A DNA stretch of 52,568 bases from a virus (taxonomy: Duplodnaviria; Caudoviricetes). Positions within the stretch are counted from its first letter, which is position 1, and the number at the start of each line of letters is the position of its first letter. This document shows positions 47,997 through 48,253 of this stretch, piece after piece. The DNA is taken from positions 1 to 52,568 of IMG/VR virus record IMGVR_UViG_3300001765_000049; one strand, 5' to 3'. Both the position numbers and the translations under genes were made by a program. The notes under the pieces are model-generated. The model was not told where the DNA came from. It was given only the letters and a program-made list of their open reading frames with translations, and did no database searches.

Positions 47997-48008
47997 AAGT
48001 TCTTTGAA
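47997..48008 (+). promoter_or_regulatory. boxA-like antitermination element
   Basis: AAGTTCTTTGAA immediately before the non-coding RNA block resembles the rrn boxA (GCTCTTTAA/GTTCTTTGA). Confidence 0.4.
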
Positions 48009-48013
48009 TGATT

Positions 48014-48253
48014 TAAGTCTTTCTGCTGAAAGCAAAACAGTAATTGAGGGCACTCATGGAGTGGTTGGGATTGGGCAACCATAATTACAATCCTGCCAAG
48101 GATGTTGTTTGTTTGATGATGTTATGTGTTTATCATGGGGATAGCAGCCACTACGTACTTAGGAGAAAACGTGTGACCTCTTCGGCACTTGCATAAACGA
48201 TTAGGTATAAACACAATAATAACATTCCGTTGGGAAACGGGCAGAAAGATTTA
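48014..48253 (+). ncRNA. Unidentified structured RNA (~240 nt)
   Basis: 13-bp closing stem TAAGTCTTTCTGC/GCAGAAAGATTTA; internal helices GTAATT/AATTAC, CACTC/GAGTG, GGTTG/CAACC, GTGTTTAT/ATAAACAC and CCGTT/AACGG; no ORF in the track; more GC-rich than the flanks. Confidence 0.6.

Follow-up and report, generated by a model that had tools for sequence, protein, structure and literature searches.

A family of structured RNAs with exchangeable domains beside oversized tRNA-like elements in uncultivated phages

Structured RNAs beside tRNA genes are known from several phages. The stable RNAs C and D of phage T4 are encoded next to tRNA genes, and GOLLD and ROOL are likewise structured phage RNAs that adjoin tRNA genes or are co-transcribed with them. 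A further RNA of this kind, termed here RNA A, was analyzed at positions 47997–48253 (plus strand) of a virus record from IMG/VR; this record of 52,568 bases is a fragment with a rated completeness of 16% and is called the window below. A preliminary description of this DNA had proposed that the block is a novel phage non-coding RNA, transcribed and processed together with a tRNA-like element. RNA A is far smaller than GOLLD and ROOL and has no match to them in Rfam, in sequence or structure. It also differs from these two and from the T4 RNAs by a boxA leader and by cassette-like domains. The available text of PMC10690425 describes a catalogue of 8495 candidate RNAs of 29–151 nucleotides (nt) from IMG/VR, and parts of RNA A may already stand in its lists.

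The scan of the window with Rfam 15 returned no family at threshold for RNA A, the only passing match in the whole window being a tRNA at 48260–48389. There was no threshold match to tmRNA, RNase P, signal recognition particle RNA, 6S RNA, riboswitches, ribozymes, GOLLD or ROOL. Within 47997–48253, the only row with E ≤ 10 was CRISPR-DR21, at 23.7 bits for a threshold of 48; this and the other weak rows (CRISPR-DR47, SNORA69 and others), all far under threshold, were rejected. No Rfam family was found for the homologues and neighbouring operon parts at 20 loci. The absence of an Rfam family, combined with strongly covarying base pairs, supports the proposed novelty, and comparison places RNA A in a previously undescribed family of structured non-coding RNAs. 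Among phage RNAs of tRNA clusters, this family is new in uniting features that have not been described together before.

The block had been described as non-coding, richer in G+C than its flanks and folded into several helices, all of which was borne out. No open reading frame (ORF) of at least 60 amino acids (aa) overlaps it, the longest having 50 aa, and the G+C fraction in 100-nt windows is 0.40–0.44 inside, versus 0.26 at 47900–48049 and 0.33 at 48200–48299. The ends form a helix of 13 pairs, with TAAGTCTTTCTGC (48014–48026) facing GCAGAAAGATTTA (48241–48253) and a single G-U pair (G48017-T48250). Enclosed are a branched domain, where GTAATT (48040–48045) pairs with AATTAC (48083–48088) around the hairpins CACTC/GAGTG (48051–48055 with 48059–48063) and GGTTG/CAACC (48064–48068 with 48076–48080), a long helix (48118–48134 with 48210–48226), and the hairpin CCGTT-GGGA-AACGG at 48227–48240. 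Six nt (48254–48259) separate the block from the tRNA-like element, which Rfam matches with 36.3 bits. The single-sequence fold is marginal, with a minimum free energy of −67.5 kcal/mol (z = −2.01) and six of 200 shuffles equally stable. The folding energy of the window sequence by itself is weak evidence; comparison is decisive.

Homologues were reached through the RNA ligase encoded downstream, which has thousands of metagenomic relatives, by way of an alignment of 35 that led to 80 viral loci (individual loci are designated by L and a number). Among these ligase-derived loci, nhmmer detected RNA A in two (L019 and L002) and, in three, a sequence resembling the non-coding stretch at 48390–48532 of the window, named RNA C here. 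Patterns drawn from the conserved ends of RNA A and from RNA C yielded more copies in viral contigs and 102 metagenome stretches. Once duplicates and false matches were removed, 34 distinct homologues remained, which together with the window constitute the 35-sequence alignment. Four of them (L223, L220, L221 and L226) were found with a pattern covering helices P4 and P5, independent of helix P1 and the leader. From P1 to P1 the core measures 162–263 nt, and the phage records that bear it reach 200–363 kb.

MAFFT alignments of 27 and 35 sequences displayed a conserved core interrupted by two unalignable regions. The core is a four-way junction closed by P1, in which P2 bears variable domain 1 (VD1) and hairpin P3, P4 bears variable domain 2 (VD2), and hairpin P5 follows (Table 1). 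Over the 35 sequences, 92.9% of 1214 cells pair, versus 37.9–51.4% when the 3′ partners are slid by one to three columns. Both sides have changed in 18 of 35 pairs, versus 8.3 ± 1.8 in shuffled alignments, and the covariation score is 0.277 versus 0.157; neither value was reached in 500 shuffles. The earlier count with 27 sequences gave the same picture. The covariation that the preliminary description had called for is thus strong, according to direct counts rather than R-scape. The shuffles ignore the kinship of the sequences, but such an artefact is made unlikely by the slid controls and by the large variety of pair types. RNAalifold, unaided, recovered P1, P2 and P4. G-U pairs occur in P1 and P4, where the opposite strand would have C-A, which indicates that the RNA is read from the plus strand.

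The elements kept with both-side changes in the 34 other sequences are P1, the P3 hairpin, the P4 base of the long helix and the CCG/CGG hairpin. In P1, 98.9% of the cells are paired and four of ten pairs change on both sides, exclusively in the four homologues found without the P1 pattern. The corresponding values are 96.7% and three of seven pairs for P2, and 97.1% and four of six pairs for P4, where one pair is GC in ten sequences and AU, CG or UA in seven each. P5 is also 97.1% paired, with one of three pairs changed on both sides (C-G for U-A). All five pairs of P3 change on both sides, with stems including AUCCU/AGGAU, GUCAC/GUGAC, GUUCU/AGAAC and UUCC/GGAA. The lower proportion of paired cells in P3 (83–89%) is due to shifts of loop length in the MAFFT alignment, and in 28 of 31 sequences a script did locate the hairpin where it was expected. 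From these comparisons, the existence of RNA A and its proposed fold are considered very highly probable.

The loop of P3 (consensus YCCAAG or UUCCAA) is complementary to that of P5 (CUUGGAAA or UGUGGAAA). At least four contiguous pairs can be drawn in 28 of 29 parsed sequences; the single miss, L084, is a parsing artefact, and L083 and L125 could not be parsed because their P5 stems contain a mismatch. On average 5.0 contiguous pairs are possible, versus 2.84 when the letters of the P5 loop are shuffled, with 3.28 as the highest value of 500 shuffles. Two registers are used, CCAAG/CUUGG and UUCCA/UGGAA. Changes of C to U in the P3 loop retain pairing with G, and in L102 both loops are altered together to UGCAA/UUGCA. 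In the window, CCAA (48096–48099) faces TTGG (48230–48233). The two loops are thus predicted to be able to kiss. An alternative to P5, pairing CTG (48026–48028) with CGG (48238–48240), fits most sequences equally well by pair counts. It is disfavoured, as it displays no both-side change and would stop the P5 loop from kissing; the complementarity of the loops favours P5.

The arrangement is reminiscent of the tRNA cloverleaf, in which a stem closes the molecule and the first and last of three arms are in contact through their loops. As in engineered tRNA scaffolds for RNA display, foreign inserts are placed in the middle arm. Unlike tRNA, RNA A lacks D and T loop sequences as well as a CCA end and a discriminator, and its junction strands are long. 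Neither the tRNA model nor ARAGORN matched a tRNA inside 47997–48253. The likeness is an analogy of shape and does not imply membership.

The variable domains were sorted by shared 7-mers in the 35 sequences, which gave 15 types of VD1, 19 of VD2 and 30 combinations of the two. In the window, VD1 type 3, common to L019, L120 and L202, stands together with a VD2 (also numbered type 3) otherwise present only in L155, whose VD1 is of another type than that of the window. In L019, L120 and L202 the branched domain shows an exchange of G-C for A-U in the GGTTG/CAACC stem. By manual reading of the alignment, an inner helix of VD2 still pairs in both the window and L155, although the letters of both its strands are different in the two sequences. 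VD1 and VD2 therefore appear, from the combinations observed, to be exchanged like cassettes among relatives. A GCCACT in VD2, noted by eye as a possible cobalamin B12-box, was dismissed for want of Rfam support.

The commonest VD2 type, not that of the window, occurs in nine of the 35 sequences, combined with five VD1 types. It contains a hairpin that resembles the abiF RNA motif (RF03085). According to the available text of PMC12373285 and PMC12737573, this motif is an RNA antitoxin that binds and neutralizes the AbiF HEPN toxin, and one solved complex comes from a Prevotellaceae bacterium. In the shared plan, an outer stem of 6 base pairs (bp) is followed by 1 nt and an inner stem of 3 bp; the loop has 11 nt, and the 3′ side has an internal loop of 6 nt. 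In L088, positions 1–37 of the abiF model were aligned over the full length with 21.5 bits (E = 0.14 in a 281-nt search; threshold 37), and in L120 model positions 8–26 matched with 22.0 bits. The loop of L088, CUCUCAACGAU, is identical to the RF03085 consensus, with which the other carriers share eight or nine of 11 letters by manual count. The middle stem covaries among the nine carriers as CUC/GAG, GUC/GAU, GGC/GUC, CAC/GUG, CUU/AAG and CAU/AUG. The window itself has no abiF match, and its variable domains, like the other cassettes, match no Rfam family.

The abiF motif, known as AbiFr or RCd22 of the AbiF type III toxin–antitoxin system, lies upstream of its toxin gene, which the phage look-alike does not. 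Four phage records with the module were searched, one of them 299 kb long and 91% complete, and none gave a match to the Abi_2 toxin family; nor does such a gene occur among the neighbours of the RNA A loci. The same search was positive in control genomes, including Bacteroides thetaiotaomicron. Because the gene is absent from the four records searched, the hairpin is regarded as a candidate orphan look-alike of the antitoxin RNA. It is present as a single copy within a larger RNA, and its carrier is a lytic-type giant phage. Phage RNAs that mimic host defence RNAs have precedents in the pseudo-ToxI directed against ToxIN and in RNA anti-CRISPRs. The action proposed here would be the same, a phage copy occupying a defence protein. 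These precedents are bare repeats, whereas the putative mimic in RNA A is one module on a conserved scaffold.

RNA A begins at a boxA-type leader, whose core GTTCTTTGAA has a single exact copy in the window and precedes P1 by 3–8 nt. It is kept in eight of the 11 homologues that were found by methods without the leader motif. Published boxA sequences, as given in the available text of PMC5725501, are UGCUCUUUAACA for Escherichia coli and GYTCTTTAANA for gamma-proteobacteria; the boxA of the Bacillus subtilis rrn leader, AUGAUCUUUGAAA, binds NusB (PMC13753749, available text). The form of the family compared with these is GUUCUUUGAA; in its core, UCUUUGAA, it does not differ from the B. subtilis element. 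By manual count, the window fits eight of the ten specified positions of GYTCTTTAANA and most relatives fit nine. The earlier label boxA-like was thus appropriate.

The leader resembles in sequence the boxA of rrn operons, CRISPR arrays and suhB in gamma-proteobacteria. It likewise heads a long transcript that is not translated, with a long-range closing helix coming next, but it is encoded by a phage and no boxB or boxC was recognized. The available text of PMC13753749 reports that boxA precedes CRISPR operons, which are comparable since they are also long untranslated transcripts. Upstream of the leader, at 12–17 nt, a TAnnTTTG box is present in nine of 29 loci. The flavobacterial sigma-A −7 box has this sequence and occupies −12 to −5 (PMC9723704, available text), pointing to a host that is probably a member of the Bacteroidota. 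In other loci the leader stands 3–5 nt after a tRNA-like element (five loci) or overlaps the stop codon of the upstream gene. Since it is kept in three different upstream settings, it is regarded as part of the transcript and not a promoter. It is inferred to recruit host Nus factors so that the polymerase completes the untranslated operon of 0.5–1 kb. Candidate pairings between the leader and either the P3 loop or RNA C were inconsistent across sequences.

The operon lies between a conserved 133-aa gene and the gene of an Rnl2-type RNA ligase. RNA A is its first part or nearly so, after which come, in this order, one to three oversized tRNA-like elements, RNA C, and a terminator. A tRNA-like element, recognized by a T arm and a 7-pair acceptor stem, begins 0–7 nt after RNA A in 29 of 31 loci. 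Of the two exceptions, L130 fails the strict rule by one pair, and L002 has no such element, RNA A lying directly before the RNA-ligase ORF. Five loci have a tRNA-like element upstream of RNA A. As adjacency within 0–7 nt in 29 of 31 loci leaves no room for a promoter, it is strongly suggested that RNA A is co-transcribed with the tRNA-like RNA and processed with it, as had been proposed.

The tRNA-like elements that follow RNA A measure 91–220 nt and are all oversized. ARAGORN with default settings found no tRNA or tmRNA in the window or in nine loci. When introns were allowed, the element of the window was read as tRNA-Ser(GGA) with a 48-nt insert at 32/33; it turns into a regular cloverleaf once 48 nt between the anticodon-stem position 31/32 and the loop are removed. 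The elements downstream of RNA A in L130, L095 and L133 have unrelated inserts of 39–55 nt at the same place. Elements of relatives read as tRNA(UUA), a would-be UAA suppressor, and as tRNA-Tyr(GUA). A second kind adjoins RNA A in L019, L083, L088, L107, L108, L187, L102 and others. Its acceptor, D and T arms are normal, the anticodon loop is replaced by a stem of variable length capped by GGGA, GGGAA, CCGAAAGA or similar, and the very long variable arm contains a conserved GGTGCACC.

RNA C has the conserved motif GGAAAGT..GC.ACTAAACCTAAC, then a hairpin with a T run; its motif GGAAAGTNNGCNACTAAACCTAAC was found in 11 viral stretches. The loop of the terminal hairpin is conserved as GATAAATGA or GATGAAGATAAA. 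RNA C has no Rfam match, and a resemblance of GGAAAGT to RNase P CR-I, seen by eye, was discarded as Rfam did not support it. A simple terminator scan does not flag the hairpin. By manual reading, the next hairpin tailed by a T run comes after RNA C in most loci. An opposite-strand Cys-rich ORF is inserted between the tRNA-like element and RNA C in L087, L089, L090 and L092, where only a 3′ remnant of the tRNA-like element stands before RNA C. The insert is possibly a mobile gene, perhaps a homing endonuclease.

Contigs from one metatranscriptome sample (X1 and X5) cover 48107–48249 and 48262–48419, each differing from the window by three letters and one gap. The contig boundaries near 48249 and 48262 are not readable as RNA ends. 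They run through the insert of the tRNA-like element without a joint. The library had no contig over 47300–48106 or 48469–48895, which says nothing on expression levels.

RNA A appears confined to one sub-clade of uncultivated phages, since prokaryotic matches are by chance only and related phages lack the motif. In a scan of one genome per prokaryotic species, three stretches matched the 22-nt pattern region (32–37 nt by nhmmer) within otherwise unrelated DNA and were treated as chance matches. The J1/2–P2 motif, with up to three mismatches, is absent from five related large phage records, two of which are complete. The 1-kb region had no blastn match in 50,697 phage records of GenBank, and a search for related loci with the RNA ligase alone returned none. 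The best tblastn match of the ligase in phage records has 51% identity, hence no close cultured relative. At L094:8130–8930 (reverse), the parts stand in the same order but in other letters: first a GTTCTTTAAA leader, then AGAGAAGTG/CACTTCTTCT as the closing helix, the 3′ strand of which has a hairpin directly before it. This possible distant relative was undetected by nhmmer and is not counted.

Table 1. Positions of the elements of RNA A, the other parts of the operon and the neighbouring genes in the window
Feature	Position	Strand	Remarks
ATP-grasp R2K-clade gene	44329–45132		
ATP-dependent DNA ligase	46003–47130		
133-aa protein	47355–47756		conserved GADIRNKL motif; just upstream of RNA A
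boxA-type leader	47997–48008	+	AAGTTCTTTGAA; core GTTCTTTGAA from 47999
P1, 5′ strand	48016–48025	+	AGTCTTTCTG; pairs with 48242–48251; helix longer in the window (48014–48026)
J1/2	48026–48032	+	CTGAAAG; columns nearly invariant
P2, 5′ strand	48033–48040	+	CAAAACAG; pairs with 48105–48111
VD1	48041–48089	+	branched; GTAATT/AATTAC around two hairpins
P3 hairpin	48090–48103	+	ATCC-TGCCAA-GGAT; conserved YCCAA loop; not named in the preliminary description
P2, 3′ strand	48105–48111	+	TTGTTTG
P4, 5′ strand	48118–48123	+	GATGTT; pairs with 48221–48226; base of the long helix
VD2	48124–48220	+	
P4, 3′ strand	48221–48226	+	AACATT
P5 hairpin	48227–48240	+	CCGTT-GGGA-AACGG; family core CCG/CGG with 8-nt loop
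P1, 3′ strand	48242–48251	+	CAGAAAGATT
Oversized tRNA-like element	48260–48389	+	Rfam tRNA, 36.3 bits; 55 nt inserted in the anticodon loop
RNA C	48390–48532	+	hairpin 48501–48524, T run 48527–48532; nhmmer matches in L006, L018 and L019
81-aa Cys-rich protein	48725–48970		MECQTLERYDE...CKVCKKYH
RNA ligase	48975–49973		PF09414 family; Rnl2-type; "RNA ligase 2" in distant cultured relatives
Thg1-like tRNA-His guanylyltransferase	50785–51624		

RNA A, the tRNA-like element and RNA C occupy a non-coding gap (47995–48547) in the window. It is preceded by the genes of the ATP-grasp R2K protein and the ATP-dependent DNA ligase and by small ORFs, and followed by those of the RNA ligase and Thg1. Within 6 kb of RNA A in 31 loci, the 133-aa gene is upstream in 30 and the DNA ligase gene in 17; downstream are the RNA ligase gene in 25 and Thg1 in ten. 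The ATP-grasp gene is found about 2.8 kb upstream in 14 of these loci, and the block of ATP-grasp, DNA ligase, RNA operon, RNA ligase and Thg1 is kept in many. The 133-aa protein has no Pfam family and no atlas match, and its AlphaFold model (pLDDT, the predicted local distance difference test, 79.7) has no match in the PDB at E ≤ 0.001. The 81-aa Cys-rich protein encoded after the operon has relatives in five loci in all and only a weak, sub-threshold likeness to APO_RNA-bind.

The following reading is preferred, although only tentatively. Transcription would start at the Bacteroidota-type −7 box where there is one, and would otherwise enter from the upstream gene or an upstream tRNA-like element. 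The boxA leader would recruit the host NusB and NusE, keeping the polymerase from terminating in the long untranslated stretch or at the T run that follows P1. A cut by RNase P at the 5′ end of the adjoining tRNA-like element would then free RNA A. The released RNA would be a stable scaffold acting in trans. On its rigid core it would present interchangeable modules of RNA, which would bind host proteins, above all those of defence, and titrate them. In nine of the 35 members, the look-alike of the AbiF antitoxin would neutralize the host AbiF toxin.

RNA A might instead serve the tRNA-like RNAs, as the RNA of a phage ribonucleoprotein or as a catalytic or chaperone RNA that recognizes, processes or assembles them with the RNA ligase and Thg1-like enzymes. 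This is considered unlikely. Its fusion to tRNA-like elements in 29 of 31 loci, the proximity of ligase (25/31) and Thg1 (10/31) genes, and tRNA-like inserts of 39–55 nt at one fixed place, which might need handling, are all in keeping with such a role, as are the conserved letters in junctions and loops and the tertiary loop–loop contact, features found in ribozymes and aptamers. However, RNA A does not resemble RNase P or any ribozyme family of Rfam, no partner protein was found, the adjacent 133-aa protein being without family, atlas or fold match, and L002 has RNA A without a tRNA-like element. The contigs that cross the insert without a joint give no sign of splicing. A role in cis, in which P1 and the T run, as a riboswitch-like leader or an attenuator, decide on transcription into the tRNA-like genes, RNA C and the ligase gene, is quite improbable. 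A GATTTTT does follow P1 in most members, and RNA A directly precedes the RNA-ligase ORF in L002. A four-way junction that combines a loop–loop contact with conserved junction letters, as in RNA A, typifies aptamers such as those of the lysine, SAM-I and cobalamin riboswitches. RNA A is, however, followed by RNA genes in 29 of 31 loci. Moreover, the T run after P1 is lacking in the window, L083, L084, L148 and L155, no alternative anti-terminator pairing was found, a tRNA-like element also precedes RNA A in five loci, and a boxA favouring read-through is ill-suited to an attenuator 250 nt later. Least probable, and very much so, is a structured spacer that stabilizes the primary transcript and aids its processing, without function once released. 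The arrangement does recall rrn leaders, in which boxA is followed by a long-range closing helix formed by leader and trailer. A spacer would have no need for four conserved helices, a covarying loop–loop contact and near-invariant junctions across 35 divergent sequences.

Several points weigh against the scaffold displaying decoys. The variable domains of the window itself resemble nothing known, so that the decoy function is argued from relatives, and ribozymes and riboswitches, too, have freely varying peripheral domains that are not decoys. The abiF-like scores of 21.5–22 bits are below the 37-bit threshold, with E values of 0.14 and 4.4. Most homologues were fished with patterns containing the leader and P1, the conservation of which is thereby partly built in, and L087, L220 and L221 are without a good boxA. 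The assignment of the host to Bacteroidota rests on a short promoter motif in nine of 29 loci. The upstream letters of contigs X1 and X5 indicate that they come from a relative like L155 and not from the window; DNA can be present in RNA libraries, so that the contigs attest presence in the library and no more. As all loci come from one phage clade, the synteny may be mere inheritance rather than common function.

A more far-reaching picture is speculative and rather doubtful. RNA A would be a natural RNA display platform of giant phages, a rigid cloverleaf-like scaffold produced in large amounts through boxA antitermination, excised by tRNA-processing enzymes and fitted with recombined cassettes acting as decoys or aptamers. 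It would include the first phage-borne mimic of the antitoxin of AbiF, a Cas13 ancestor. The oversized tRNA-like RNAs, with their variable inserts at a single fixed site, would be a second set of scaffolds and, with the RNA ligase and Thg1, would complete an RNA-based counter-defence island.

Few new RNA classes of this size and complexity have comparative support as clear as that of the RNA A family, with its five conserved helices and covarying tertiary contact. Whatever its function, the alignment makes it a new Rfam family, and its structure would be well worth determining. The family would join topics that are usually separate: Nus-factor antitermination of a non-coding operon in a phage, non-canonical tRNA-like RNAs, and mimicry of a toxin–antitoxin RNA that is ancestral to the guides of Cas13. 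If the modules are decoys, the family would provide a catalogue of natural protein-binding RNA cassettes together with a ready, stable scaffold. With the abiF-like members, RNA-based anti-defence could be tested directly in these phages, whose hosts are probably Bacteroidota.

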